Source of the DNA: Escherichia coli
Lineage (GTDB): Bacteria; Pseudomonadota; Gammaproteobacteria; Enterobacterales; Enterobacteriaceae
Assembly: GCF_050920415.1 (NCBI RefSeq)
Contig: NZ_CP169309.1
Direction: 5' to 3' (one strand)
DNA: 64,000 nt
Each line of letters begins with the position of its first letter. Position 1 is the first letter of the stretch. Below the pieces are notes generated by a model that ran no database searches, was not told the DNA's origin, and saw only the letters and a program-made list of their open reading frames with translations. Below are positions 3,301 through 53,564 of this stretch, one piece after another. The position numbers and the translations under genes were made by a program.

Positions 3301-4788
3301 TTAAATCACCTCTTCGATAACCCACACGCTGACGCTGCCGCCGTTGCAAAAGAAGGTCGCTTCGCCGTTTTCGTCGGTTACTACACTTTCTTGCCGGTTC
3401 CCCAGAAAATCACGCCAGGTTTTATTGCCGTAATTCTCTCCTAAATGAATGGTTTTTTCGCCATCATCTCCGTTCGACATGACCACCACGCAGCCGGGAT
3501 ATTCGTCGGTGCCACTGCGGCTAAAGGCAATGCAGTTCGGATGGTCGAAAAATAACGTCTGTACACCGTGGGCGAAACGCTGACGGGCGAGAATTAATTC
3601 ATCAAGTTGTTCGATTATTGGCATATCTATCGGATAGGTTTGCCCGTCACCACCGACATCTTCGTAATGTGCACCGTAGAGATCCGGATAGAACACCGAA
3701 GGAACGCCATTTTCCCGCAACAAAATTAGGGCGTACGCCAGCGGTTTAAACCACGGTTCGACCGGCGCTTCGAGGGCTTGCAACGGTTGGGTGTCGTGGT
3801 TGGCAACGAGGGTTACGGCGTGAAAAGGATCGGCTTCCACAAGCGTCCCAGTGAAAATCTGCGTCATGTCGTAGTCGCGTCCCATGCGCGATGCTTCATG
3901 GAATTTCATCTGCAGCGGCGCATCGAACAGCATGGTTTTGCCTTCCACCTGATCAATATACGTTTGCAGCTTATCAACTTCATGCGACCAGTATTCCGCC
4001 ACAATAAACAGCGGCTTTGGCGCAACTTCCTGTACGTGTTCGATCCACTCTTTATAAAACCACGCCGGAATATGTTTGACCGCATCAAGACGAAAACCGT
4101 CGCATTGCGTTTGTTCCATCACCCAGCGCGCCCAGTATTTAATCTCTTCCGTCACGGCATGATTGCGAAAATCGATATTCTCGCCCATCAGGTAATCGAA
4201 ATTACCGAGTTCATCATCAACCTGATCGTTCCAGCCTTCGCCGGTGTAGTCGTTAACAATTTTAAAAATGCCATCTTCATCAGGATTTTCGATATGGTCG
4301 ATACCGCTAAAACATTTGAAATCCCAGATAAACTGTGAGTATTGCCCGGCACGGGCGGGGAAGGTGTAACGCGTCCAGCCTTCGCATTCAATGATTTCTT
4401 CATCAATTTGCGTACGGTCGTCAGCATTAACGCGCTGCACGCGAATAGCTTCTTTTTCATCCGCGCCCATTTTGTGATTGACTACCACGTCCAGCAGCAC
4501 CGCAATGTCATTACGTTTCAGGGCGTCAATGGCGGCCAGCAGTTGTGCTTTATCGCCATATTTAGTAGGGATGCTGCCTTTCTGATCAAACTCGCCTAAA
4601 TCAAATAAATCATAGGAGTCGTAGCCGACCGAATACCCGCCCGATGCGCCTTTATAGGCGGGCGGCAACCAGACCATATTGATACCAATATCATTAAAAC
4701 CGTCGGCGCGCTCGGCCAGTTCAGGCCAGAGCTTACCGCCTTCCGGGTAATACCAGTGAAAACATTGTAACAGCGTGGGATTACGCAT
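3301..4788 (-). CDS. amyA: Cytoplasmic alpha-amylase
   Basis: 495 aa ORF with glycoside hydrolase family 13 motifs; no signal peptide. Confidence 0.9.
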
Positions 4789-36492: not shown

Positions 36493-37293
36493 TTAACCGC
36501 GCTTCGCCTTCTGCGTCGCGGTGGTTTTTCGTGTTGCAGGCTTCCGCGTTGTTTTTTTACTTTTGCTGCTTTCGTCCTGCGTCTGCGGTGTGCTGGCATC
36601 TTCTGGTGCGGCTGCGGAATCAGCTTTCTTCAGGGCGCGGGAAAGGGTTGCAATCTCGCGTTTCACACCTGCGTTCGGGTTCAGGTGCATCGCTTCGCGC
36701 AGCAGCTTCAGTGATGAGGCCATGCTGTCCGCATCACTCAGGCCACGGCGGGCAAAGGCGCACGCCTTGCATAATTTGGCGCGCACTTCGTCCGGCATAT
36801 CCTGGTTGGCGACAATTTCCCAAAGTGTGTCCAGTGGTTCGATAAAGGTGGACAAATCCGCGTCGGCATCCGTCCCGGCCTGCGTCAGTACCGGGTTGCA
36901 GATTTCTTCGGTCAGTACCGTGGCAGCAGTACGGCCAAAGTTATCCGGCATGATGAGGTTGTGACGGACCACATACGCACCAATACGCAGCGCAAGCGGA
37001 AGATCGCCGCAGTCAATCGCCCACACCATCAGCGTGGCAATCACTTCGTCCTGCTGCCCGCCGTCAGCCTCCAGCGTTCCCTCAATCCAGCCGGAAAAAT
37101 CCGGCAACAACTCTTTTTTGATGGCGGCTTTCGCGCTTCTTGCCTGTACGCCCTTAAGCCGGGCCTGTGCCAGACGCAGACGATACAGCACCTCTTCATG
37201 CGCGGTACGCGCGGCGTGGTCCACGCCTTCATTCGCCCGGCCTGCGCGCTGTGCCATCACGTTCTGCCAGTGTTGCTGTGCAGGAGTAATCAT
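36493..37293 (-). CDS. Terminase endonuclease (small) subunit gpM-like
   Basis: 266 aa with basic C-terminal tail; position between capsid and gpL. Confidence 0.8.
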   Translation of the reverse strand: MITPAQQHWQNVMAQRAGRANEGVDHAARTAHEEVLYRLRLAQARLKGVQARSAKAAIKKELLPDFSGWIEGTLEADGGQQDEVIATLMVWAIDCGDLPLALRIGAYVVRHNLIMPDNFGRTAATVLTEEICNPVLTQAGTDADADLSTFIEPLDTLWEIVANQDMPDEVRAKLCKACAFARRGLSDADSMASSLKLLREAMHLNPNAGVKREIATLSRALKKADSAAAPEDASTPQTQDESSKSKKTTRKPATRKTTATQKAKRG

Positions 37294-39405: not shown

Positions 39406-41157
39406 ATGATTCAGGACGCTTTTGTGCGCCAGCGTGCGCGGCAACTTTACTGGCAGGGTTATCCGCCCGCAGAAATATCACGTCTGATGGGAATAAACCC
39501 GAACACGATTTATGCGTGGAAAAAACGCGACCAGTGGGATGAAACGCCACCCGTGCAGCGTGTCACGCAGTCCATCGATGCGCGCCTCATCCAGCTCACT
39601 GAAAAACAGAATAAAACAGGTGGTGACTTCAAGGAAATAGACCTGCTGACCCGGCAGCTTAAAAAACTGCATGATGGCCAGCCGGATGCGACGGCCACAG
39701 GAAAGAAAGGCCGGGCGAAAAAGCTTAAAAATCATTTCACGCCGGAACAGATTGCCGCACTGCGGGAAAAAATCATCAGCAGGCTGGAGTGGCATCAGCG
39801 GGGCTGGTTTGACTCCCTGACCCTTTGCAGGGAAGCAGGGATACGTAACAGGATGATCCTGAAATCCCGACAGATTGGGGCGACCTGGTATTTTGCACAG
39901 GAAGCGCTGCTGATGGCGCTGCGTGACGATGTGGCGCAACCTTACCAGCGTAACCAGATTTTTTTGTCTGCGTCGCGTCGTCAGGCGTTCCAGTTTAAAA
40001 GCATTATTCAGAAGGCCGCGGCTGAAGTTGATGTGGAGTTGAAAGGGGGCGATAAAATCATCCTCTCCAACGGCGCAGAGCTGCATTTTCTCGGCACTTC
40101 TGCTGCGTCGGCACAGTCCTATACGGGCAATTTTTATTTTGATGAATTTTTCTGGGTCAGTCGCTTTGCTGAACTGCGCAAGGTGGCTGGCGCTATGGCA
40201 ACCCTCAGCGGACTGCGGCGCACCTACTTCTCCACGCCATCCACCGAAACGCACGAGGCATACGCCTACTGGAACGGCGACCGCTGGAACGAGAAAAAGG
40301 CCACGCATAAACGCCAGCGTTTTTCTGTGGACTGGAAAACGCTGCATAACGGGCTTATCTGCCCTGACCGGACGTGGCGGCAAATTGTCACGCTGGAAGA
40401 TGTGGTTAATCACGGCTGGAAACACACCGATATCGACGAAATTCGTGATGAAAACACCGAAGACGAGTTCCTCAATCTCTATATGTGTGAGTTTGTCCGC
40501 GAAGGGGAATCGGCATTTAACCTGAATATCCTGATTGGCTGCGGTGTTGACGGATACGACGACTGGAAAGACTGGAAACCTTTTGCTCCCCGCCCGATGG
40601 GGAATCGTCCGGTATGGATTGGGTATGACGCAAACGGCAGCAGTGGCAACGGCGACAGCGGCGCTGTGTCCGTGGTGGTTCCTCCGTCTGTTCCTGGTGG
40701 CCGTTTTCGAACGGTGGAGACGCGACGCGCTCAGGGGCTGGAGTTTGAAGAACAGGCCAGAGTCATTGAAGAGTTCACGTGTCGCTACAACGTGGAACAC
40801 ATCGGCATTGATGTGACGGGCGGGAACGGGGAGGCTGTTTATCAGATAGTGAAACGGTTTTTCCCTGCCGCTATTCCGTACACCTTCACGCTGTCATCAA
40901 AACGGTCGCTGGTACTGAAAATGCTGCAAATAATGCGTGCCGGGCGGTGGGAATACGATCGCGCCGAACGCGAGCTGGTCGCGGCCTTTAACGCCGTGCG
41001 TAAGGTGAAAACACCGGGCGGCTTTATCACTTACGAAACGGACCGCGCGAGGGGGATCAGCCACGGCGACCTTGCGTGGGCAACCATGCTTGCTGTCATT
41101 AACGAACCAATTGGCGGCGAAGGAGAAAACGAGCGTTTCACGGTTATGGAGTTCTGA
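39406..41157 (+). CDS. Terminase ATPase (large) subunit gpP-like
   Basis: 583 aa, divergent from gpO as in P2. Confidence 0.9.
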   Translation: MIQDAFVRQRARQLYWQGYPPAEISRLMGINPNTIYAWKKRDQWDETPPVQRVTQSIDARLIQLTEKQNKTGGDFKEIDLLTRQLKKLHDGQPDATATGKKGRAKKLKNHFTPEQIAALREKIISRLEWHQRGWFDSLTLCREAGIRNRMILKSRQIGATWYFAQEALLMALRDDVAQPYQRNQIFLSASRRQAFQFKSIIQKAAAEVDVELKGGDKIILSNGAELHFLGTSAASAQSYTGNFYFDEFFWVSRFAELRKVAGAMATLSGLRRTYFSTPSTETHEAYAYWNGDRWNEKKATHKRQRFSVDWKTLHNGLICPDRTWRQIVTLEDVVNHGWKHTDIDEIRDENTEDEFLNLYMCEFVREGESAFNLNILIGCGVDGYDDWKDWKPFAPRPMGNRPVWIGYDANGSSGNGDSGAVSVVVPPSVPGGRFRTVETRRAQGLEFEEQARVIEEFTCRYNVEHIGIDVTGGNGEAVYQIVKRFFPAAIPYTFTLSSKRSLVLKMLQIMRAGRWEYDRAERELVAAFNAVRKVKTPGGFITYETDRARGISHGDLAWATMLAVINEPIGGEGENERFTVMEF

Positions 41158-42203
41158 TGAGCAGAAAAAATAAAAAAGTGCGCATGAGTTCACGCATTGA
41201 TCTCGCTGATGCGCTCAGGAAAGAATCATCGCTCAGTGCATTCACATTTGATGGTCCTTATCGCCTGACCGGGCATGACCTGCTGGACAATATGTACTGT
41301 GCTGATAACGGGCGGTGGTATGAAACCCCGGTGGACTGGTACGGTCTGGCAAGAGCCGCCCGGCAAACGTCCTGGCATCAGTCTGCGCTTTACTTTAAGC
41401 GCAATGTATTGCTCGGTTGCTACATCCCGCACCCGCTGCTTTCCCGGCAGGATTTCTCGGCGCTGGCGCTGGACTGGTTTGTGTTCGGTAACGCATTCCT
41501 TGAGCTTCGAAGCAATATGCTCGGCGAACCGCTTAAATTACGGCACGCCCTGGCGAAATACATGCGACGCGGAAGCGATCTTGAATCATGGTGGTATGTG
41601 CAGGATGGCAAGGATGCGTTTCAGTTTCGCCCAGGCAAAGTGTGCCACCTGATGAATCCGGACATTAACCAGGAAATCTACGGCATGCCGGAATATCTCG
41701 GCGCATTACTCTCGGCCAGCCTGTCTCATTCGGCGGACATGTTCAGAAAACTGTATTACGACAACGGATCCCACGCCGGGTGCATCATCTACATCGGTGC
41801 AGCGCAGGTAAACCGCGAAAGCATGGACTCCCTGAAAGAAACGCTACAGGGTGCGCGTGGTGGTGGTGCGTTTAAAAACGTGCTCATTCATGCGCCCAAC
41901 GGGGGCAAAGAGGGGGTGCAAATTTTGCCGTTCCAGCAGATCACCGCAAAGGATGAGTTCATGAATGTTAAGGCGGCATCCCGTGATGATGTGCTGGCTG
42001 CGCACCGCGTTCCGCCGCAACTGATGGGGGCGATGCCGGGTGAAAAAAGTGCGTTTGGTGATGTGGAGAAGGCCGCGCGGGTTTACGCAATTAACGAGCT
42101 GATGCCCGTCATGGAGGCCATGAAGCATATCAATGACTGGCTTGGCGAAGAGGTGCTCCGCTTTAACCCTTACGCACTGCTGGACACCCAGCCCACATCC
42201 TGA
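41157..42203 (+). CDS. Portal protein gpQ-like
   Basis: 348 aa directly after the terminase gene. Confidence 0.9.
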   Translation: MSRKNKKVRMSSRIDLADALRKESSLSAFTFDGPYRLTGHDLLDNMYCADNGRWYETPVDWYGLARAARQTSWHQSALYFKRNVLLGCYIPHPLLSRQDFSALALDWFVFGNAFLELRSNMLGEPLKLRHALAKYMRRGSDLESWWYVQDGKDAFQFRPGKVCHLMNPDINQEIYGMPEYLGALLSASLSHSADMFRKLYYDNGSHAGCIIYIGAAQVNRESMDSLKETLQGARGGGAFKNVLIHAPNGGKEGVQILPFQQITAKDEFMNVKAASRDDVLAAHRVPPQLMGAMPGEKSAFGDVEKAARVYAINELMPVMEAMKHINDWLGEEVLRFNPYALLDTQPTS

Positions 42204-42656
42204 CGCGCTTCGCTTGTCTGCTGCTTCGCCGGGGCATAAAAAATTTATGCCCCGACTCTCCAGCTCCTGTATCAGTCAGATAATTTCACGACGCCTTCCA
42301 GTTTATCGCCACTATCGACAGTCAGACTCTTACGCAATCCCACTGCGCTGACTGCATGTTCTCGCCGCCTCAGTGCGATTTTGACGGCCTTATCTGCCAC
42401 CCCGTCAAATCAAAAGCCCTCACGTCTTTTTCACGCTCAGCGTGAGAAATACAGCCATTCTGTTGTGTCGCTGCGACATCGTTCAGGGGATGCTATTTAC
42501 CCCCTGAAACGCGGGCTGTTCCCCCGTCACCTGCGCGTAGAAAAAGCGCGTTTTTTTGTGCACGCACGGATCCTTGACGGATCCAGCCGCCACGCGGGCC
42601 GGAAGGGCAAAAAGTCGTTCAAAAAAATTGTGCAAATTTGTGCACTATTGTGCATT

Positions 42657-42686
42657 GAAATAAACGCCCTGGAAGAGGGCGTTTTG
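42657..42686 (-). terminator. Terminator at the end of the cargo operon
   Basis: Hairpin AACGCCCTCTTCCAGGGCGTT followed by a T-rich tail on the minus strand. Confidence 0.5.
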
Positions 42687-42694
42687 GCTCATTT

Positions 42695-42955
42695 CTATAG
42701 CTTTGATGCAGGCTGGGCTAGATGTAAGGGTTGGACATACCAGCCTTTTGATAACCAACTCTCTGCAACATCTTTACTCCTTGTTATTGCTGGTATTCCG
42801 ATGCCGTTATTTACATGCATCCATGCTACTGGCTCTGCTTCCAGCGATGCCAGTGCAATTTCATAAGCACGGCGTTCAATATTGTCTCGAACGTCCAGGC
42901 TGCCGATGCGCTCTTTGATTTCTTTAATCAGTTCTTTGTCGGTGAACGTTGTCAT
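42695..42955 (-). CDS. Hypothetical small protein (cargo operon gene 8)
   Basis: 86 aa ORF, last gene of the minus-strand operon; no recognised family. Confidence 0.45.
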   Translation of the reverse strand: MTTFTDKELIKEIKERIGSLDVRDNIERRAYEIALASLEAEPVAWMHVNNGIGIPAITRSKDVAESWLSKGWYVQPLHLAQPASKL

Positions 42956-42965
42956 GTGTTAGTCC

Positions 42966-43229
42966 TTATCCTGCTGTGCTTTCAACTGATGAGGGGAACA
43001 AAATCTTTTCATCAAATCCGGCATTCATATCATGGACAGCAACACACCAATCCATCGACGAACGATTATCAAGAGCCTCCATGATTTCATCCATGCGGCG
43101 TAGGTCATACAGGTAAATGTTTTTATCGCCAATGGTGTAAAAACCAATTTTTTTCGGTGATGGACAGCGATCAAGAACGTCCTGTAATTCGTTCAACCAT
43201 GCCTGTTCTTTTTTTGTCAACGTTGCCAT
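42966..43229 (-). CDS. Hypothetical small protein (cargo operon gene 7)
   Basis: About 87 aa from MATLTKKEQ; no recognised family. Confidence 0.45.
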   Translation of the reverse strand: MATLTKKEQAWLNELQDVLDRCPSPKKIGFYTIGDKNIYLYDLRRMDEIMEALDNRSSMDWCVAVHDMNAGFDEKILFPSSVESTAG

Positions 43230-43230
43230 A

Positions 43231-43449
43231 TCAGTTTTCCTTATACGGATTAATTTTATTGTGCAATGTGTTGAACGACGCCCATACCACGTCGTTATAC
43301 AATTCAATAACTGGCTCAATTATTTTCCCGATTGCCCAGATAAAAATTAGCGGGGATATCGGTATCATCAACACGATAAACAGAATGAGAAACAGAAATT
43401 CTATTGCTCTACTCTTTCGCGGATAGTTTTTCCTGAATAGTGTAGGCAC
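43231..43449 (-). CDS. Small single-pass membrane protein (cargo operon gene 6)
   Basis: 72 aa with one strongly hydrophobic helix (FLFLILFIVLMIPISPLIFIWAIG). Confidence 0.45.
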   Translation of the reverse strand: MPTLFRKNYPRKSRAIEFLFLILFIVLMIPISPLIFIWAIGKIIEPVIELYNDVVWASFNTLHNKINPYKEN

Positions 43450-43450
43450 C

Positions 43451-43645
43451 TCACTCTCCTTTAATGCGAAAGTGGTTTTTCCAGCGGTTTTGCGCCGCGC
43501 TGGGCTTTTTGCAAAAACCGCAATCCATCATCCCGTAATATTTCATCAACCCCATTCGTCGGTTGCTGAGTCTCACCCACTGCCATACGCCTGGATCGTT
43601 TCTGCGAACTAACAGAATCTTTGCTTTACGGTTGTTGGTTGCCAT
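43451..43645 (-). CDS. Hypothetical small basic protein (cargo operon gene 5)
   Basis: About 64 aa from MATNNRK; Cys/His-containing; start uncertain. Confidence 0.35.
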   Translation of the reverse strand: MATNNRKAKILLVRRNDPGVWQWVRLSNRRMGLMKYYGMMDCGFCKKPSAAQNRWKNHFRIKGE

Positions 43646-43961
43646 ATCCCCCTCCCTTGATACCAATATTTACAACATGGCAAGCCTCTTTGAGCACCCA
43701 GTCAACAGCGTCTTTCCATGCTCCGGTTTCGGCTGGCGGATTCTCACGCTTTACCAGTTCATAGAAACGTACTGCTCTAACCAGTCCATCTGACGGTTTT
43801 GCCTGTAGTGCAGCCTGAGCTATGCGGTATGCCTGGAGTATACGGGCGTCGTTGATATCCATTCCGAACGGAATTTCTGATGATTGTGATTCTGCATCTT
43901 CAAGCCTGGCAATTTCTTTACGTAAGAAGTATTTCAACTCTTGTTTTTGTTTTCTGTTCAT
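43626..43961 (-). CDS. Hypothetical protein (cargo operon gene 4)
   Basis: 111 aa ORF, no recognised family. Confidence 0.45.
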
Positions 43962-44290
43962 GCGTTTTTTCCCTTTTTGTCTGTCACTTCTCTCCTGATA
44001 ATTTCATTGCACAAATCCACGCACTCATTGCAGATGTAAACAGACGGTCCAGCAATCACCTTTGTGACTTCGTACTGGGATTTATTGCAGAAGCTGCAAT
44101 AAATCGTCTCCTCACCTGAAGTCCATGTTTTGCTGGTTTCGCCAGACATCAGTTGTTTGAGGTCTTTTTCACGACGAAGAACTATCTGGCCACATTCAGC
44201 TATTTTTTGGATGTTGACATTTTCTTCTTTCGCCAGCGCTTCCATCCGCTCAATCAGTCGCTGCGCTTTTTCTCTGTCAATGTGTTGCAT
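43958..44290 (-). CDS. Small protein with C-terminal ClpX-type C4 zinc-finger domain
   Basis: C-terminus [38 protein letters not shown] closely matches the recalled N-terminal zinc-binding domain of ClpX. Confidence 0.7.
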
Positions 44291-44353: not shown

Positions 44354-44665
44354 TTATTCGGGAAATAACGCCCGGATATTTCCGGCCATCTGACTGGTTA
44401 TCTGTGCGGCTGATACTGGCTGTGACGCGGGGCGTTCTGTCCTGGGTTGTGTCACTGATAACGCCTCATCATCAGCCCATGCAGCCAGTCGGTAAGCCTC
44501 TGCCGGATTCATTTTCAGTAGTGCCAGCCCGGCCAGAAAAGCCACGCGTTGACCACTTTTGCGGGCTTCTGGTGTAAGGCTGTCCAGCCAGGCGCATGCT
44601 TCGCCTTCGTTCTTGACGGCGGCGGGCTTCAGATAGAAACTTATCCGTCTGGTTGGTGTCGTCAT
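44354..44665 (-). CDS. ParR-like DNA-binding adaptor
   Basis: About 103 aa from MTTPTRRISFYLKP...LDSLTPEARK...AFLAGLAL...ALFPE; resembles recalled plasmid R1 ParR. Confidence 0.65.
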   Translation of the reverse strand: MTTPTRRISFYLKPAAVKNEGEACAWLDSLTPEARKSGQRVAFLAGLALLKMNPAEAYRLAAWADDEALSVTQPRTERPASQPVSAAQITSQMAGNIRALFPE

Positions 44666-44669
44666 TGGC

Positions 44670-45629
44670 TTACTCCTTGTCCATTGCGTACAGCCCATTA
44701 ACCAGAGCAAACTGTGGCACCCCGTCCGCGATGAAAGTCGCATTAACTCCGCAGGCTTCGCGGATAGCGGGTGCCACAATCTCCGCCCCGCCACCGACAA
44801 CCATCACCCGCCCGTAACCCGAAAAACCCGCCAGCGCGCGGATCACGCGTTGTTTCAGTGTTTCTTCCTTTTCACGAATAACCGCCATCAGGCTGGCGTA
44901 ATGCGCGTCATTGTGGATGTGCTGGCGCAGCCAGGCTTCATCATGGCGATGTTCAATAATGGTATTGGCGATGTGGTGACTGGTGCGCATACCGTTAGTG
45001 GCCATCACCGACAGCACGGCATCGGCCATCAGTGAAACACCTACGTGTGGATCGCAAAACACCTGGCTGATACCTGCCAGTTGTCCCTGAACCTTTGCCA
45101 CATCCAGCGTGGTTCCGCCCAAATCCACAATCAGCAGGGATTCAAACGGACTCATGTCAGCCAGTGCCTTAAAGCCTGCCGGAATGGATTCAGGCATAAC
45201 CCGCACGTTACGGATAGTGAATGCCTCACCGTTCTGGTACTCCACCGGGCGCATAACGTTCGCTTTTTTGCGGTTGATGTTGGCCATGTCCGGCTGTGCG
45301 TTTGTGTCGAAATACTCGCTCAGTGGCAGGGTGACAACCACATCCACCTCCTGTGGCGTGATGCCTGATTTGACCAGCGCGTGATGAATGGCAATGACAT
45401 TCACATCGCTGTATTGGTATTGCGTGTCGGTCGTCTGGACAAAGCGATCGCTGACCGGATCAAAACCATAGCGCACGCCATCAAGCATGTAGTTCGCGGG
45501 CTGCGTGCCACCGAACGGCGCAGACCATTCCGACTTGAAGCTGTTCGGGCTGATGGCGTTGCGGCGTTCGCCGTTCTCAGTCCATGCCAGCTTGATGTTG
45601 GTGGAGCCGTCGTCGATACAAATTTTCAT
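44670..45629 (-). CDS. ParM/StbA-like actin-fold ATPase
   Basis: 319 aa; N-terminus MKICIDDGSTNIKLAW...ISPNSFK and ...YSDVNVIAIHHAL... closely resemble recalled plasmid R1 ParM. Confidence 0.85.
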   Translation of the reverse strand: MKICIDDGSTNIKLAWTENGERRNAISPNSFKSEWSAPFGGTQPANYMLDGVRYGFDPVSDRFVQTTDTQYQYSDVNVIAIHHALVKSGITPQEVDVVVTLPLSEYFDTNAQPDMANINRKKANVMRPVEYQNGEAFTIRNVRVMPESIPAGFKALADMSPFESLLIVDLGGTTLDVAKVQGQLAGISQVFCDPHVGVSLMADAVLSVMATNGMRTSHHIANTIIEHRHDEAWLRQHIHNDAHYASLMAVIREKEETLKQRVIRALAGFSGYGRVMVVGGGAEIVAPAIREACGVNATFIADGVPQFALVNGLYAMDKE

Positions 45630-45660: not shown

Positions 45661-45756
45661 TTTACGGGATTCTGAAATCCCGTTTTTGCCTGCTTTGTGC
45701 GCGCTTCATATATCACTGCGCGTTTTTTGCTCATTTACGGGATTCGTGAGTCCCGT
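45661..45756. promoter_or_regulatory. Two 20-bp palindromes upstream of parM (candidate parC-like centromere/operator)
   Basis: ACGGGATTCTGAAATCCCGT (45664..45683) and ACGGGATTCGTGAGTCCCGT (45737..45756), each preceded by TTT; the second overlaps the last codons of gene A. Confidence 0.5.
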
Positions 45757-48528
45757 TTCTGTCTGTTTTTTGTTTCCGCTGGTCAGGCCACCCCGCAGCA
45801 GGTCTGCTTTGCGGCTGGCGCGTTCAGTGGTTTCACTGATTCTCTGTGCGTGCTCTGCGTCGCGGATGGCGCGCAGCATGTCAGAAAGCACAGTAACGGG
45901 TGTTTTCATGGTGTTCTGGTCCTGCTGAAGTGTGGATGCCAGGCGTGCGGCGGCTTCAGGGTCTGATGCCCCCAGCTGTGCCAGATAGCTGGCGACCGGG
46001 TTATGGCGGATCTCCGTGCTGCTTACGCCATGATTACGGCTCAGGCGCTGCCAGAGCTGCGTGATTCGGCTGTCCGGGCGGGTATCCGGTTTGCGTACAA
46101 TTTCAAATCCCTGCGGTGCAATGATGCTGCCGTCAACGTACAGACTGCCGCCCCGTAACAGGTGCTGCATCTGTTGTTCACCGATATGCAGGCCGAGAGA
46201 TTCAGCAGACTCCCGCCATTCTTTAGCGAGTAATTCGTGGTTATCAGGCAAAGGCCGCTGCTGTTTGCGGCTCTGTGTCCAGCTCTGCATTTCATCACTG
46301 CTGTTTTTTGCCTGTTTGTCACGAAGCGAACGCATCAGCGCCCGGCGTTCGTGCCGTTTCAGTGAGCGCATCCATTCGTTCACTTCAACGCCGTCAGGGA
46401 GCTGCGGCCACGGTGCTGGCCGTTCTTCCGGCTGTTCTGTCCCGTTGTTGTCCGTTTCCTGTGCACGGGGACAGTTATTGCCACGAGTCCAAGGGGCGGC
46501 AGGGCCGCCCTGAAGGTCAAAACCATTTTCGTGGGCGTTGTCTCCCGGTTCTGGTTTACGTCTTACCAGCTTCCAGTTATCCGGATGCGTGCACACACGG
46601 GAGGATTCCCCGATGAGTGGTGACCAGATCCCGTAAATCTGTACGCTCTGTTCGCCGTAATCGTTCAGCTCATCTGCGAGGTCGTAGGCGGTGCGAATCA
46701 GGTAGTCCTTGCGTGGAACAAGCACGCCACCCTGTTTTTCAATGTAGGTGGCAAAACACCCGGCATCGGCGGCAGCGAGTACCGCATCCATTGCATCATC
46801 TTTCAGCCGTTGCGGGCCTTCCGGATTGCGTGCCATCTGGCTGGCAAGGCGGCGCAGTTCACGCCACACCTGACGGGAGGGGATGCCAAAGAACTGGAAC
46901 TGACGGACCCGGTGAAGGCGCGCCCAGCCGATGGCGCGCTCCACGCTCTCGGCCATTGATTTTCCGGTTTCGTGGTCAACGCGTGGCTTGCCCGTTTTCG
47001 GGTCGATGCCATCCACGGCGCGGCTGTCCAGGTTCTTTCCGATGTAGGTGGCGATGTAGCTGGTTGGTGTGCCTTTTGAGCCGTCGACATACTCCGCCTT
47101 AAAACGCGGAGTTATGTCATCGCCCAGCTCGTGGCGGTCCTCCTGAATGGCAATATCGCAGACGTGGGACACGATGGTTTCAATCTCGTCCGGATGTGCA
47201 AAGACCATCATATGCCAGTGCACAGTGCCGTCATGGTGAGGCTCCACCGTGCGGATGCCATACCAGCGCAGGCCGTCGCGGTTCAGTTTTTTGCGGACCG
47301 CCGCAAAAAACGTGTTAACCAGGTAATCGCTGGAGTCGCGCATGGTGGCCCCGTTCCATTTGGGGTTCGGATGACCGTTCTCCGTTGTTGCGTGGTATTT
47401 TGACGGGCAGGTGACGGTCAGAAACACCGCTCTGTCGCCACGGGCTTCGGCCAGAAGTTCCAGTCCCTTCATGGTGGCCATCATTTCTGCCTTACGGTGA
47501 ACCGGGTTACTTACTCCCGCGTAATACACCGTCTCGAGATCAATCGTGAACCCGTCTTCATTTTCCAGCATGAAACTTTTCAGGAAATCGCGTGTTTTCT
47601 CGCGCTGTGCGCGAAACTCGCTTAACGCGTCCTGGCTCAGATAGGGGGATGTTTTTCTGGAAACCAGACAGGCGGCGCGGAGTTGTTCTTCCCGCCACTC
47701 ACAACGTAACAGCCACAGTTTGCGTTTCCACCATTCCGCACAGGTCAAGCGAAGGATTGCGCCCGGCAGCAGCTCCGTGTCCGGTTCGTTCCTCCGGTCT
47801 TTGTCTGTTGTCAGTGCGTCATAATGTGGAGGCATGGCGTGCAGGTGTAACGCCATGCGGGCCAGCATCTGATAAGCCTTCAGGGTTACATCCATGGTCA
47901 GCTCGCCATCAGTCGCGCCAAAGCCATCGCAGAGTTTTTCGAAGGTGCTGCTGAACATCGCCGCCGTCATGGTGGCCAGCGTCTGTATCTGGTGTTTGTT
48001 GAGCTGCGGCAGGTAAAGCAAATCGTCCAGGCGTTCGCGTCCGGCAAGGGAGCGATAACCCGGTGTCAGCCAGCGGTGGTCGGTGCGGTCCAGACGTTCG
48101 AATATTTTGCGCAGGGTTCCGCACGCGTAGCGTTCAGCCTGCCAGCTCTTTTTGCCTTTCCGGCGATCGGCTTCCTGTTTTTTGCGCAGGAAGGAGAGGT
48201 GGCGAATAAGCGGATCGCGCAGATAGGACGGCAGCAGGCGCAGCGAGGCCATGGCTTCATCCACCGCGCCACGTGCCTGTTTTCTGGCGTCTCCTGCCAG
48301 TGTGATGGTTTTGTCCTGTTTTTCCTGTGCGTCCAGGCTTTTATTAATCAGGTTGCCCAGCGGCGTGGCGGAGAACGCCGCATCAGCCATTTCCTGGCGG
48401 CGCTCGTTCTCTGCCCGGTAGGCATCCAGCCAGGAGGAAAGCGCGGATTCAGGAGCGGGGATCCCCGTTCCTTCACGCCCCACTGCGTGGCGCGGTTGTT
48501 GCCAGTCCCTGATGTACTCTGCCGTCAT
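45706..48528 (-). CDS. Replication initiation endonuclease (P2 gpA-like, rolling-circle)
   Basis: 940 aa at the canonical position downstream of the early operon; longer than the ~760 aa I recall for P2 A. Confidence 0.8.
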   Translation of the reverse strand: MTAEYIRDWQQPRHAVGREGTGIPAPESALSSWLDAYRAENERRQEMADAAFSATPLGNLINKSLDAQEKQDKTITLAGDARKQARGAVDEAMASLRLLPSYLRDPLIRHLSFLRKKQEADRRKGKKSWQAERYACGTLRKIFERLDRTDHRWLTPGYRSLAGRERLDDLLYLPQLNKHQIQTLATMTAAMFSSTFEKLCDGFGATDGELTMDVTLKAYQMLARMALHLHAMPPHYDALTTDKDRRNEPDTELLPGAILRLTCAEWWKRKLWLLRCEWREEQLRAACLVSRKTSPYLSQDALSEFRAQREKTRDFLKSFMLENEDGFTIDLETVYYAGVSNPVHRKAEMMATMKGLELLAEARGDRAVFLTVTCPSKYHATTENGHPNPKWNGATMRDSSDYLVNTFFAAVRKKLNRDGLRWYGIRTVEPHHDGTVHWHMMVFAHPDEIETIVSHVCDIAIQEDRHELGDDITPRFKAEYVDGSKGTPTSYIATYIGKNLDSRAVDGIDPKTGKPRVDHETGKSMAESVERAIGWARLHRVRQFQFFGIPSRQVWRELRRLASQMARNPEGPQRLKDDAMDAVLAAADAGCFATYIEKQGGVLVPRKDYLIRTAYDLADELNDYGEQSVQIYGIWSPLIGESSRVCTHPDNWKLVRRKPEPGDNAHENGFDLQGGPAAPWTRGNNCPRAQETDNNGTEQPEERPAPWPQLPDGVEVNEWMRSLKRHERRALMRSLRDKQAKNSSDEMQSWTQSRKQQRPLPDNHELLAKEWRESAESLGLHIGEQQMQHLLRGGSLYVDGSIIAPQGFEIVRKPDTRPDSRITQLWQRLSRNHGVSSTEIRHNPVASYLAQLGASDPEAAARLASTLQQDQNTMKTPVTVLSDMLRAIRDAEHAQRISETTERASRKADLLRGGLTSGNKKQTETGLTNPVNEQKTRSDI

Positions 48529-52562: not shown

Positions 52563-53564
52563 ATGTCGGTTCGTAAGATTCCATCAGGTAAATGGCTTTG
52601 CGAATGTTATCCCTACGGGGCATCGGGAAAACGCATTCGTAAACAGTTTGCGACAAAAAGTGAGGCGCTCTCTTATGAGCGCCGTTTAATGAATAGTAGA
52701 GTTGGAGACGAGTTTCAAGATGGTTCTGGTCCTCGTCTTTCTGAGTTGATTGCTCGTTGGTTTGAGATGTACGGTAAAACCTTGTCCTCTGGTGCAGAGC
52801 GCAAAGTCAAACTTGAGGCGATTTGTTCCAGGCTGGGAGATCCATTTGCTTCTCAGTTTGACAAAAATATGTTTGCTACTTATCGGGAAAGAAGGCTATC
52901 AGGAGAATGGAATCCCAAGGGGAAGAAAAAACTTAGTGAAGCAACCGTTAATCGCGAGCAGTCATATCTACATGCTGTTTTTGCCGAACTGAAGCGCCTT
53001 GGGGAGTGGTCTGGTGAAAACCCCCTGACTGGTATTCGCAAGTTTCGTGAGGAAGAAAAGGAACTGGCGTTTCTGTATGTAGATGAGATTGAACGCCTTC
53101 TGATTGCGTGTGATGAGTCACGGAATAAAGATTTGGGGGTTGTTGTCCGTATTGGGCTTGCGACTGGTGCTCGGTGGAGTGAAGCAGAAGGATTAAAGCA
53201 ATCTCAAGTACTGCCCGGTCGAATCACATTTGTTAAAACTAAAGGAAAGAAGAACCGCACTGTACCGATTTCACCTCAATTGCAGGCTATGCTTCCTAAA
53301 AAACGAGGAGCGCTATTTTCACCATGTTATGAGGCTTTTGACGCTGCAATTAAGAGAGCGAAGATCGAGCTTCCTGATGGGCAATTAACTCATGTGCTAC
53401 GTCACACGTTTGCCAGTCATTTTATGATGCGGGGCGGAAATATTCTTGTGTTGCAAAAAATACTGGGGCATAGCGATATAAAAATGACTATGCGTTATGC
53501 GCATTTTGCTCCAGGTCATTTAGAGGCTGCTGTTGAATTGAACCCTTTTGACAATAGAGGGTAA
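52563..53564 (+). CDS. int: Tyrosine integrase (P2 Int-like)
   Basis: 333 aa with catalytic box HVLRHTFASHFMMRGGNILVLQKILGHSDIKMTMRYAHF; adjacent to attR. Confidence 0.9.
   Translation: MSVRKIPSGKWLCECYPYGASGKRIRKQFATKSEALSYERRLMNSRVGDEFQDGSGPRLSELIARWFEMYGKTLSSGAERKVKLEAICSRLGDPFASQFDKNMFATYRERRLSGEWNPKGKKKLSEATVNREQSYLHAVFAELKRLGEWSGENPLTGIRKFREEEKELAFLYVDEIERLLIACDESRNKDLGVVVRIGLATGARWSEAEGLKQSQVLPGRITFVKTKGKKNRTVPISPQLQAMLPKKRGALFSPCYEAFDAAIKRAKIELPDGQLTHVLRHTFASHFMMRGGNILVLQKILGHSDIKMTMRYAHFAPGHLEAAVELNPFDNRG

Follow-up and report, generated by a model that had tools for sequence, protein, structure and literature searches.

Introduction

Phages of the P2 family possess a two-subunit terminase (gpM/gpP) and 19-nucleotide (nt) 5′ cohesive ends, and they package their DNA from monomeric circles (PMC2231350). 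P2 and P4 share only the cohesive-end site (cos) (PMC9594776, PMC9122126). In this study, we analyzed a 64,000-nt stretch of Escherichia coli DNA (NCBI RefSeq assembly GCF_050920415.1, contig NZ_CP169309.1; hereafter, the window), in which a noncoding interval, 42204-42690, follows a phage portal gene. On the evidence of sequence comparison, the segment 42495-42654 of this interval is very probably the cos site of a complete P88-like (Xuanwuvirus) prophage of the P2 family. A cos site is expected at this position, and nothing in it overturns the current understanding. The site is set apart by a variant cohesive end, by boxes of the GTGCA type and by a longer spacer between the portal gene and cos.

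The records of P2 and 186 place cos just downstream of the portal gene (Q or W) and its terminator, and the cohesive end is annotated approximately 186-195 nt past them. Written in the orientation of the window, the P2 sequence reads GCGCGCA-GTGCTTTCCCCGCCTCGCC-hairpin-TTTT-AATGCA, and the layout is the same in 186 and P4. The cos of lambda is composed of cosQ, cosN and cosB; its R-elements are bound by the small terminase gpNu1, and it contains an IHF site. The record of phiCTX annotates cosR and the repeats R3-R6 around cos. A conserved P2/P4 cos core of 55 base pairs (bp) is described in passages of PMC2231350, PMC9594776, PMC3931495 and PMC5247547, where it is attributed to Ziermann & Calendar 1990. 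Among other Peduoviridae, cos sequences have been predicted or reported for Salmonella SEN4/SEN5 (ggcgaggcgggggaacgag; PMC5261728), Smp131 (PMC3931495) and Burkholderia AP3 (PMC5247547).

Position of the predicted cos site

An earlier inspection of the DNA by a model without database searches (hereafter, the sequence-only reading) proposed that the interval 42204-42690 lies where cos lies in P2. The records of P2 and 186 agree with this proposal. The genes of the window are arranged in the order large terminase subunit, portal, hairpin (42230-42254), interval, cargo and gpA, which is the order annotated in the P2 and 186 records. The predicted site thus has the portal gene and its terminator on one side and the variable region before gpA on the other. 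As in P2, 186 and P4, it is found just downstream of the portal gene and terminator and beside a variable cargo region, with a gpM/gpP-like terminase nearby. The distance from the portal gene to the predicted nick site (cosN) is approximately 310 nt in the window, whereas it is approximately 186 nt in P2.

The same element encodes its own two-subunit terminase. The gene for the small subunit (P2 gpM-like; 36493-37293, minus strand) matches Pfam PF05944 (Phage_term_smal) with E = 1e-36. The gene for the large subunit (P2 gpP-like; 39406-41157, plus strand) encodes 583 amino acids (aa) with a helix-turn-helix (HTH) domain at residues 6-63 (PF06056), an ATPase domain (PF03237) and an RNaseH-like nuclease domain (PF17289). 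The stop codon of the portal gene (P2 gpQ-like; 41157-42203, plus strand; 348 aa; PF04860) opens the interval, and the portal protein is 99.7% identical in amino acid sequence to that of P88.

The predicted cohesive end and its core

The 19-nt cohesive end of P2 had not been matched by eye. Comparison with P2 finds a diverged form of it at 42513-42533, the predicted cosN, in two registers. In the register 42513-42531 (GGGCTGTTCCCCCGTCACC), 13 of the 19 positions match the cohesive end of P2 and P4. The register 42515-42533 (GCTGTTCCCCCGTCACCTG) is ungapped, matches P2 at 10/19 and SEN5 at 11/19 positions, and retains the P2 distances to the boxes described below. The predicted overhang of the portal side (left end) would be 5′-GGTGACGGGGGAACAGCCC or 5′-CAGGTGACGGGGGAACAGC. 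The window thus has the GC-rich end of approximately 19 nt, related to GGCGAGGCGGGGAAAGCAC, of a P2-family cos; this likeness, weak by itself, convinces only when the flanks and the geometry are taken into account.

In contrast to P2, 186 and P4, the cut sites of the window are predicted ones. Its cohesive end departs from theirs at 6 or more of the 19 positions and lacks 2 nt toward the boxes (...CCCCCGTCACC vs ...CCCCGCCTCGCC). Relative to the SEN5 and 3LV2017 forms described below, too, the P88 type is 2 nt shorter on this side of cosN (...CGTCACC vs ...CGCCTCGCC); the shortening is offset by 2 nt more before the first box.

The sequence at 42509-42562 reads ACGCGG-GCTGTTCCCCCGTCACC-TGCGCG(hairpin)-T7-GTGCA. 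The order of the elements is that of P2, 186 and P4, namely a GC-rich flank, a C-rich cohesive end, a hairpin, a T-run and a TGCA box, and the length is approximately that of the 55-bp core. The small GC hairpin (CGCG...CGCG), followed by T7, occupies 42534-42557 on the plus strand, with a terminator-like match at 42533-42551, and is the counterpart of the hairpin and TTTT of the P2/P4 core. In P88-like copies, its stem is retained and its loop varies.

Two intermediate forms bridge the gap between the P2 and the P88-type cosN. The record of Salmonella phage SEN5 ends with ...CTCGTTCCCCCGCCTCGCC, which is its published sticky end (PMC5261728), and Klebsiella phage 3LV2017 carries CTTGCTCCCCCGCCTCGCC immediately before TGCGCGC. 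The ends of SEN4/SEN5, Smp131, AP3 and phiCTX resemble that of the window in being GC-rich, 19-21 nt long and provided with a G/C run, and they were likewise assigned largely by analogy with P2. However, these phages retain the P2 end ...GCC(T/A)CGCC, whereas the P88-type end ...GTCACC is common only to Escherichia, Enterobacter and Klebsiella lineages in which the portal is 68-100% identical.

TGCA-type boxes at fixed distances from cosN

Three closely spaced TTGTGCA repeats had been noticed in the interval. They are exact copies at 42628-42634, 42638-42644 and 42648-42654, with a spacing of exactly 10 nt. A fourth copy on the same strand, which had been missed, is located at 42556-42562. As a single motif, the heptamer is no more frequent in the window than expected (12 copies vs 16.5). 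The phased triplet pattern occurs once against 0.01 expected, even when three mismatches are allowed. A T-run precedes the proximal box (42556-42562, plus strand), and the A-tract TCAAAAAAA precedes the first of the three distal boxes, with which it occupies 42619-42654 on the plus strand.

The distances of the boxes from cosN were compared among phages. Counted after cosN, TGCA starts at 26, 98, 108 and 120 in P2, at 26, 98, 108 and 117 in both 186 and PSP3, at 26, 98, 108 and 121 in P4, and at 26, 97 and 107 in Wphi. In SEN5, where the count was made from the record end and the boxes are GTGCA or ATGCA, the starts are at 26, 98, 108 and 118. For phiCTX, CTGC(A/G) starts at 25, 34, 96 and 106. 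The corresponding starts in the window are 28, 100, 110 and 120.

The 2-nt offset of the window vanishes when the distances are measured from the G after the C-run of cosN. Seven cos regions were compared in this way (the window, P2, 186, P4, SEN5, Klebsiella 3LV2017 and Enterobacter phiT5282H), and the positions +33, +105 and +115 are exact to the nucleotide in 7/7. The +33 position is that of the TGCA of the proximal box, as it is for AATGCA in P2, 186 and P4. The last distal box is found at +124 to +128, and at approximately +125 in the window. That the 2-nt difference is compensated exactly suggests a constraint on how far the boxes lie from the C-run side of cosN.

The sequences that separate the boxes cannot be aligned (window vs P2, z = -0.9 against shuffles), and TGCA was present in all three positional windows in 0 of 20000 shuffled arms. 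The P2/186/P4 group has boxes of the form ATGCA, the P88, Klebsiella and Enterobacter groups have GTGCA, and both forms occur in SEN5. Written at full length, the boxes of the window are TTGTGCA, whereas those of P2, 186 and P4 are (A/T)ATGCA. As judged from these alignments and distances, the TTGTGCA triplet is the local form of a family-wide TGCA-type element.

Although the spacer is unalignable, a GC-rich dyad is present in most lineages, at 42586-42603 in the window and in the equivalent spacers elsewhere (P4, CCGCGCCGGGAATGGCGCGG; 186, GCGCCAGCTCTGGCG; 3LV2017, CGCCAGTGCTGGCG; phiT5282H, CCGCCACAGGGCGG). Such a dyad may serve cos as an additional site for protein binding or as a structural element.

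Conservation and limits of the predicted cos unit

An unbiased sample was obtained by choosing 80 prophages by portal similarity. The cosN block was identical in 79 of the 80, and in the remaining prophage an IS1 end is inserted directly after ...GTCACCTG. In this P88-like prophage (L052; approximately 3858-3924 of IMGVR_UViG_2681813261_000011), the IS1 terminal repeat GGTAATGACTCCAACTTATTGATAGTG... stands inside or at the edge of cosN, which should make the prophage unpackageable. When 69 close relatives were aligned, the 20-nt bin 42511-42530 was the least variable of the interval; 42255-42490 varies more and is specific to the lineage.

A scan of viral contigs with a 17-mer of cosN gave approximately 200 loci. 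A portal gene (68-100% aa identity) lies to the left of the 17-mer in 75 of the 79 loci with enough flank. Two matches (L098 and L104) were rejected as chance occurrences in unrelated GC-rich contigs.

Over 37 non-redundant lineages, conservation is confined to the flanks of cosN, the T-run with GTGCA (42551-42562), and TCAAAAAAA with TTGTGCAAATTTGTGCAC..TTGTGCA (42619-42654), of which the last two are nearly invariant; no conservation was found beyond 42654 in these lineages. The sequences that flank cosN, GCG(G/T)GG and TGCGCGC, are conserved across lineages. Enterobacter phage phiT5282H, the portal of which is 69% identical, matches the window only at 42510-42661. Together with the satellite-like elements described below, these comparisons delimit a cos unit of 160 bp (42495-42654), from approximately 20 nt left of cosN to the third distal box.

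Among near-identical P88-like prophages, homology stops directly past the third GTGCA, and beyond this point the cargos are of dozens of different kinds. Thus, the triplet is the inner wall of the cos-proximal defence/cargo hotspot, which is known in P2-like phages (Rousset et al., PMC9122126).

Satellite-like elements sharing the predicted cos unit

The 17-mer also led to satellite-like contigs (L124, L135 and L192), which possess primase, integrase and regulator genes and no portal gene. When compared with the whole window by blastn, L124 and L192 match only 42489/42495-42654 (80%, 160-170 bp). L135 matches the same segment and, weakly, a 125-nt stretch (73%) at 53388-53512. All of these contigs thus have in common with the window the sequence that P2-family phages have in common with their satellites, and we infer that they are mobilised by P88-type helpers. 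Since the sharing is essentially confined to the cos unit, we take it as the best evidence that the boxes are part of the packaging signal rather than of the cargo.

The contig L135 (12,006 bp; IMGVR_UViG_2609460346_000011) encodes a repressor-like protein, an AlpA-like regulator, a P4-alpha-like primase (phrog_1139) and an integrase, and carries the cos unit. Past cos, there are two small open reading frames (ORFs), then a gene whose 470-aa product has the major-capsid domain of the P2 family, and lastly a MazF-like gene. The 470-aa protein is 35% identical to gpN of the window and has an extra N-terminus of approximately 165 aa. No portal homologue was found to the left of the L135 cosN, unlike in the 75 phage loci. 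A satellite that has its own P2-type capsid protein and the cos of its helper may represent an undescribed satellite type.

The weak match of L135 at 53388-53512 is near the far end of the prophage. This stretch is similar to the 3′-end region of the L135 integrase gene, and it may be a related integrase or att segment.

Other explanations of the repeats

The boxes might be promoter or operator elements for the cargo genes, with cos proper limited to the core of approximately 55 bp, which is how the passages of the secondary literature cited above define the conserved cos. TTGTGCA resembles a -35 hexamer, and in P2 the starts of the old-tin mRNA (33424/33426) place the -35 sequence TTGAAT directly against the third distal box. 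In the window, however, the cargo is on the minus strand, reads toward the boxes and ends at the terminator 42662-42684, and no sigma-70-like promoter site was found in the interval. The distances of the boxes are constant whatever lies beyond them, be it old in P2, psu in P4 or dozens of P88-like cargos. Moreover, satellite-like elements that share nothing else retain all the boxes, and a longer cos flank raised cosmid transduction (PMC9594776). We consider the promoter explanation unlikely.

Partition centromeres are also arrays of short phased direct repeats, and ParM/StbA (44670-45629) and Plasmid_stab_B (44354-44800) genes are only 1.7-3 kb away. The two copies of ACGGATCC and the three of TTGTGCA could accordingly be taken as a parC-like centromere for these ParM/ParR-like genes of the prophage. 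A ParR-type parC is an iteron array upstream of parM-parR and is specific to par carriers. In contrast, the boxes of the window are 1.7 kb downstream of the par genes, past three to four unrelated cargo genes and a terminator, and not upstream of parM. The same boxes are found at the same distances in P2, 186, P4, PSP3, Wphi and SEN5, in which the stretches examined around cos showed no partition gene. As for ACGGATCC, there are only two copies, and P88-like prophages carry them whatever cargo follows. This explanation is thus very improbable.

The idea that the interval is a spacer with two terminators and chance repeats, the true cos or pac being elsewhere (for example, inside the small terminase gene), could appeal to the fact that no end-mapping data were found for the lineage and to the unremarkable frequency of the heptamer, but it is hardly credible beside the rarity expected of the phased triplet (0.01), the cross-genus conservation confined to the cosN and box blocks, the restriction to these same blocks of what satellite-like elements have in common, the identity of the geometry with the experimentally defined cos of P2, 186 and P4, and the habit of P2-family phages of packaging from a cos at this position.

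Several points weigh against the assignment of 42495-42654 as a cos site. The identity to the P2 19-mer is only 10-13/19, depending on the register, and because of the 2-nt difference in length the nick positions are uncertain by approximately 2 nt and the overhang may be 17 or 19 nt long. The fold of the cos-proximal hairpin is indistinguishable from that of shuffled sequences. The conservation of cosN in the loci found with the 17-mer is partly by construction, because the 17-mer was the query, and the portal-selected sample alone is unbiased. The 55-bp core, which passages of the secondary literature call 'the' P2/P4 cos, excludes the distal boxes. The third distal box of P2 adjoins the -35 sequence of the old promoter, so that a transcriptional role is possible in that phage.

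Records and literature were also considered in this respect. Among the phage records of the collection, none has its start or end at the predicted cosN, and no record or paper with mapped virion ends was found for this lineage. The paper on P88 makes no mention of cos, and a text search of the literature for the predicted end sequence returned unrelated papers only. Contig or locus ends 5-50 nt from cosN are few, and their positions are inconsistent.

One record differs from the prophages at this place. In phage P884B11 (LR595891.1, approximately 95-110; the end of L002), the left edge of cosN (equivalent to window 42511-42520) has lost 5 nt, GCGGG (42511-42515), and has C in place of T. This variant is present in 0/79 prophage copies. 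The record starts at the equivalent of window position 42609/42610, which represents a circular permutation. If the record is derived from virions, as we assume, the variant is probably an assembly artefact at physical DNA ends, and it would then be a weak hint in favor of the assignment.

Proposed action of the terminase

The preferred reading of 42495-42654 as a functional P2-family cos site suggests how the site may work. The boxes probably bind the terminase, and either the gpM-like protein or the gpP-like one, through its N-terminal HTH, may be the reader. No relatives of either terminase subunit were found by sequence in the PDB. By analogy with P2, the terminase (the gpM-like protein and the gpP-like protein with its N-terminal HTH) would assemble on the phased boxes after induction. 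The three distal boxes are one helical turn apart, and the proximal box is 72 bp, or approximately seven turns, away. The box-bound terminase would position the nuclease of the large subunit on cosN, and two nicks made 17-19 nt apart would give 5′ GC-rich cohesive ends. The DNA would then be pumped into the procapsid. Since the boxes are on the cargo side, the terminase is predicted to stay on that box-bearing end, as would be expected by analogy with lambda cosB.

The likeness to the cos of lambda would consist in a nick site with a one-sided array of short repeats by which the terminase is anchored. In contrast, there is no sequence or protein homology with Nu1, and the sequence, number and spacing of the boxes differ. 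The repeats of the window are on the side away from the terminase genes, and the P2 family differs from lambda also in its packaging from monomeric circles (PMC2231350).

A wider proposal is tentative, and on balance we doubt it more than we favor it. It states that the RTGCA boxes are a universal, under-described, cosB-like terminase-recognition array of the P2 family and its satellites, set at exact distances (+33, +105 and +115) from the C-run of cosN, with complete turnover of the spacer sequence, and forming the fixed inner wall of the anti-phage cargo hotspot. Under the same proposal, the P88-type end would mark a separate packaging-specificity group with its own satellites, some of which encode their own P2-family capsid protein.

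Other features of the interval

The sequence-only reading had taken the interval as noncoding, and our results support this. Its ORFs have no Pfam match, and PGAP/RefSeq shows no feature under the interval among the best-matching E. coli genomes listed. A 42-aa ORF (42272-42400, minus strand), which is annotated in some phage records, is frameshifted or disrupted by a stop codon in 10/69 close relatives. An Rfam scan of the interval gave no family at threshold; the sole match was a sub-threshold gyrA-RNA on the first hairpin.

The first hairpin, reported earlier after Q at 42231..42255, is real and is located 1 nt away, at 42230-42254 on the plus strand, 27 nt past the portal stop codon. Perfect 11-bp arms (42230-42240 and 42244-42254) enclose a loop of 3 nt. 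As single-stranded DNA, it folds with a free energy (dG) of -12.1 kcal/mol (z = -6.3), and 0/200 shuffles fold as well. The hairpin is terminator-like without a T-run and is nearly invariant in the 69 relatives. The terminators tQ of P2 and tW of 186 are annotated at its relative position. The hairpin is probably the terminator of the terminase-portal operon and is not specific to cos.

The tandem ACGGATCC repeats that had been noted are two exact copies (42566-42573 and 42577-42584), 11 nt apart. The sequence occurs 4 times in the window vs 1.5 expected, and it is the adjacency, not the count, that is non-random. GGATCC being palindromic, the two copies also form a dyad of 6 bp, the fold of which lacks significance (z = -1.3). 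The pair with its spacer (42566-42584, plus strand) was found only in the P88 lineage, and other lineages retain at most a partial GATCC and other GC-rich dyads. The pair was rejected as a conserved cos element because, among the 37 non-redundant lineages, it is limited to that of P88. We regard it as a lineage-specific spacer sequence and possibly a secondary protein site.

At the other end of the interval, a hairpin with 9-bp arms (42662-42684, minus strand; z = -5.0) resembles a bidirectional intrinsic terminator, and each strand has a T-rich tail. Only relatives with the same cargo possess it, and it is outside the conserved cos unit. The minus-strand operon of the cargo ends at this hairpin, which is itself part of the cargo.

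The prophage and its cargo

Comparison with phage 520873 and P88 shows that the prophage is full length and covers approximately 18.7-54.6 kb of the window. Its gene set includes tail, head, terminase, gpA replication, ParM and integrase genes, and scaffold and capsid genes were confirmed upstream of the interval together with those for both terminase subunits and the portal. The gpA replication gene (45706-48528; PF05840) is past the cargo. Identity of the region to Escherichia phage P88 and related phages (Xuanwuvirus and neighbouring Peduoviridae genera) is 92-97%. Of 5426 complete E. coli genomes, 1141 contain the interval.

The ParM/StbA-like gene (PF06406, PF21523) and the Plasmid_stab_B ParR-like gene mentioned above are on the minus strand, between gpA and the cos-proximal cargo. 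They are also annotated in P88, 520873 and P884B11 and would amount to an actin-type partition system in an integrating phage. In the cargo, the 110-aa product of a gene at 43958-44290 (minus strand) contains a zinc finger of the ClpX C4 type (PF06689, E = 8e-18). Around it are three small ORFs without a Pfam match (42695-42955, 42966-43319 and 43626-43961). Some of the cargo is similar to sequences of the ea22 region and of DUF551 in Stx and lambdoid phages.

Implications

The 160-bp cos unit would allow P88-type phage genomes to be linearised correctly. It would also serve for cosmids or transducing particles with a P88-type helper, as is already the case with P2/P4, and would give a base-exact inner boundary of the defence-gene hotspot (Rousset et al., PMC9122126). 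The terminase of the P2 family is structurally uncharacterised, and the fixed geometry of the boxes with a free spacer across P2, 186, P4 and the P88 type offers a testable model for its recognition of DNA. In addition, this geometry shows what a satellite must copy from its helper.

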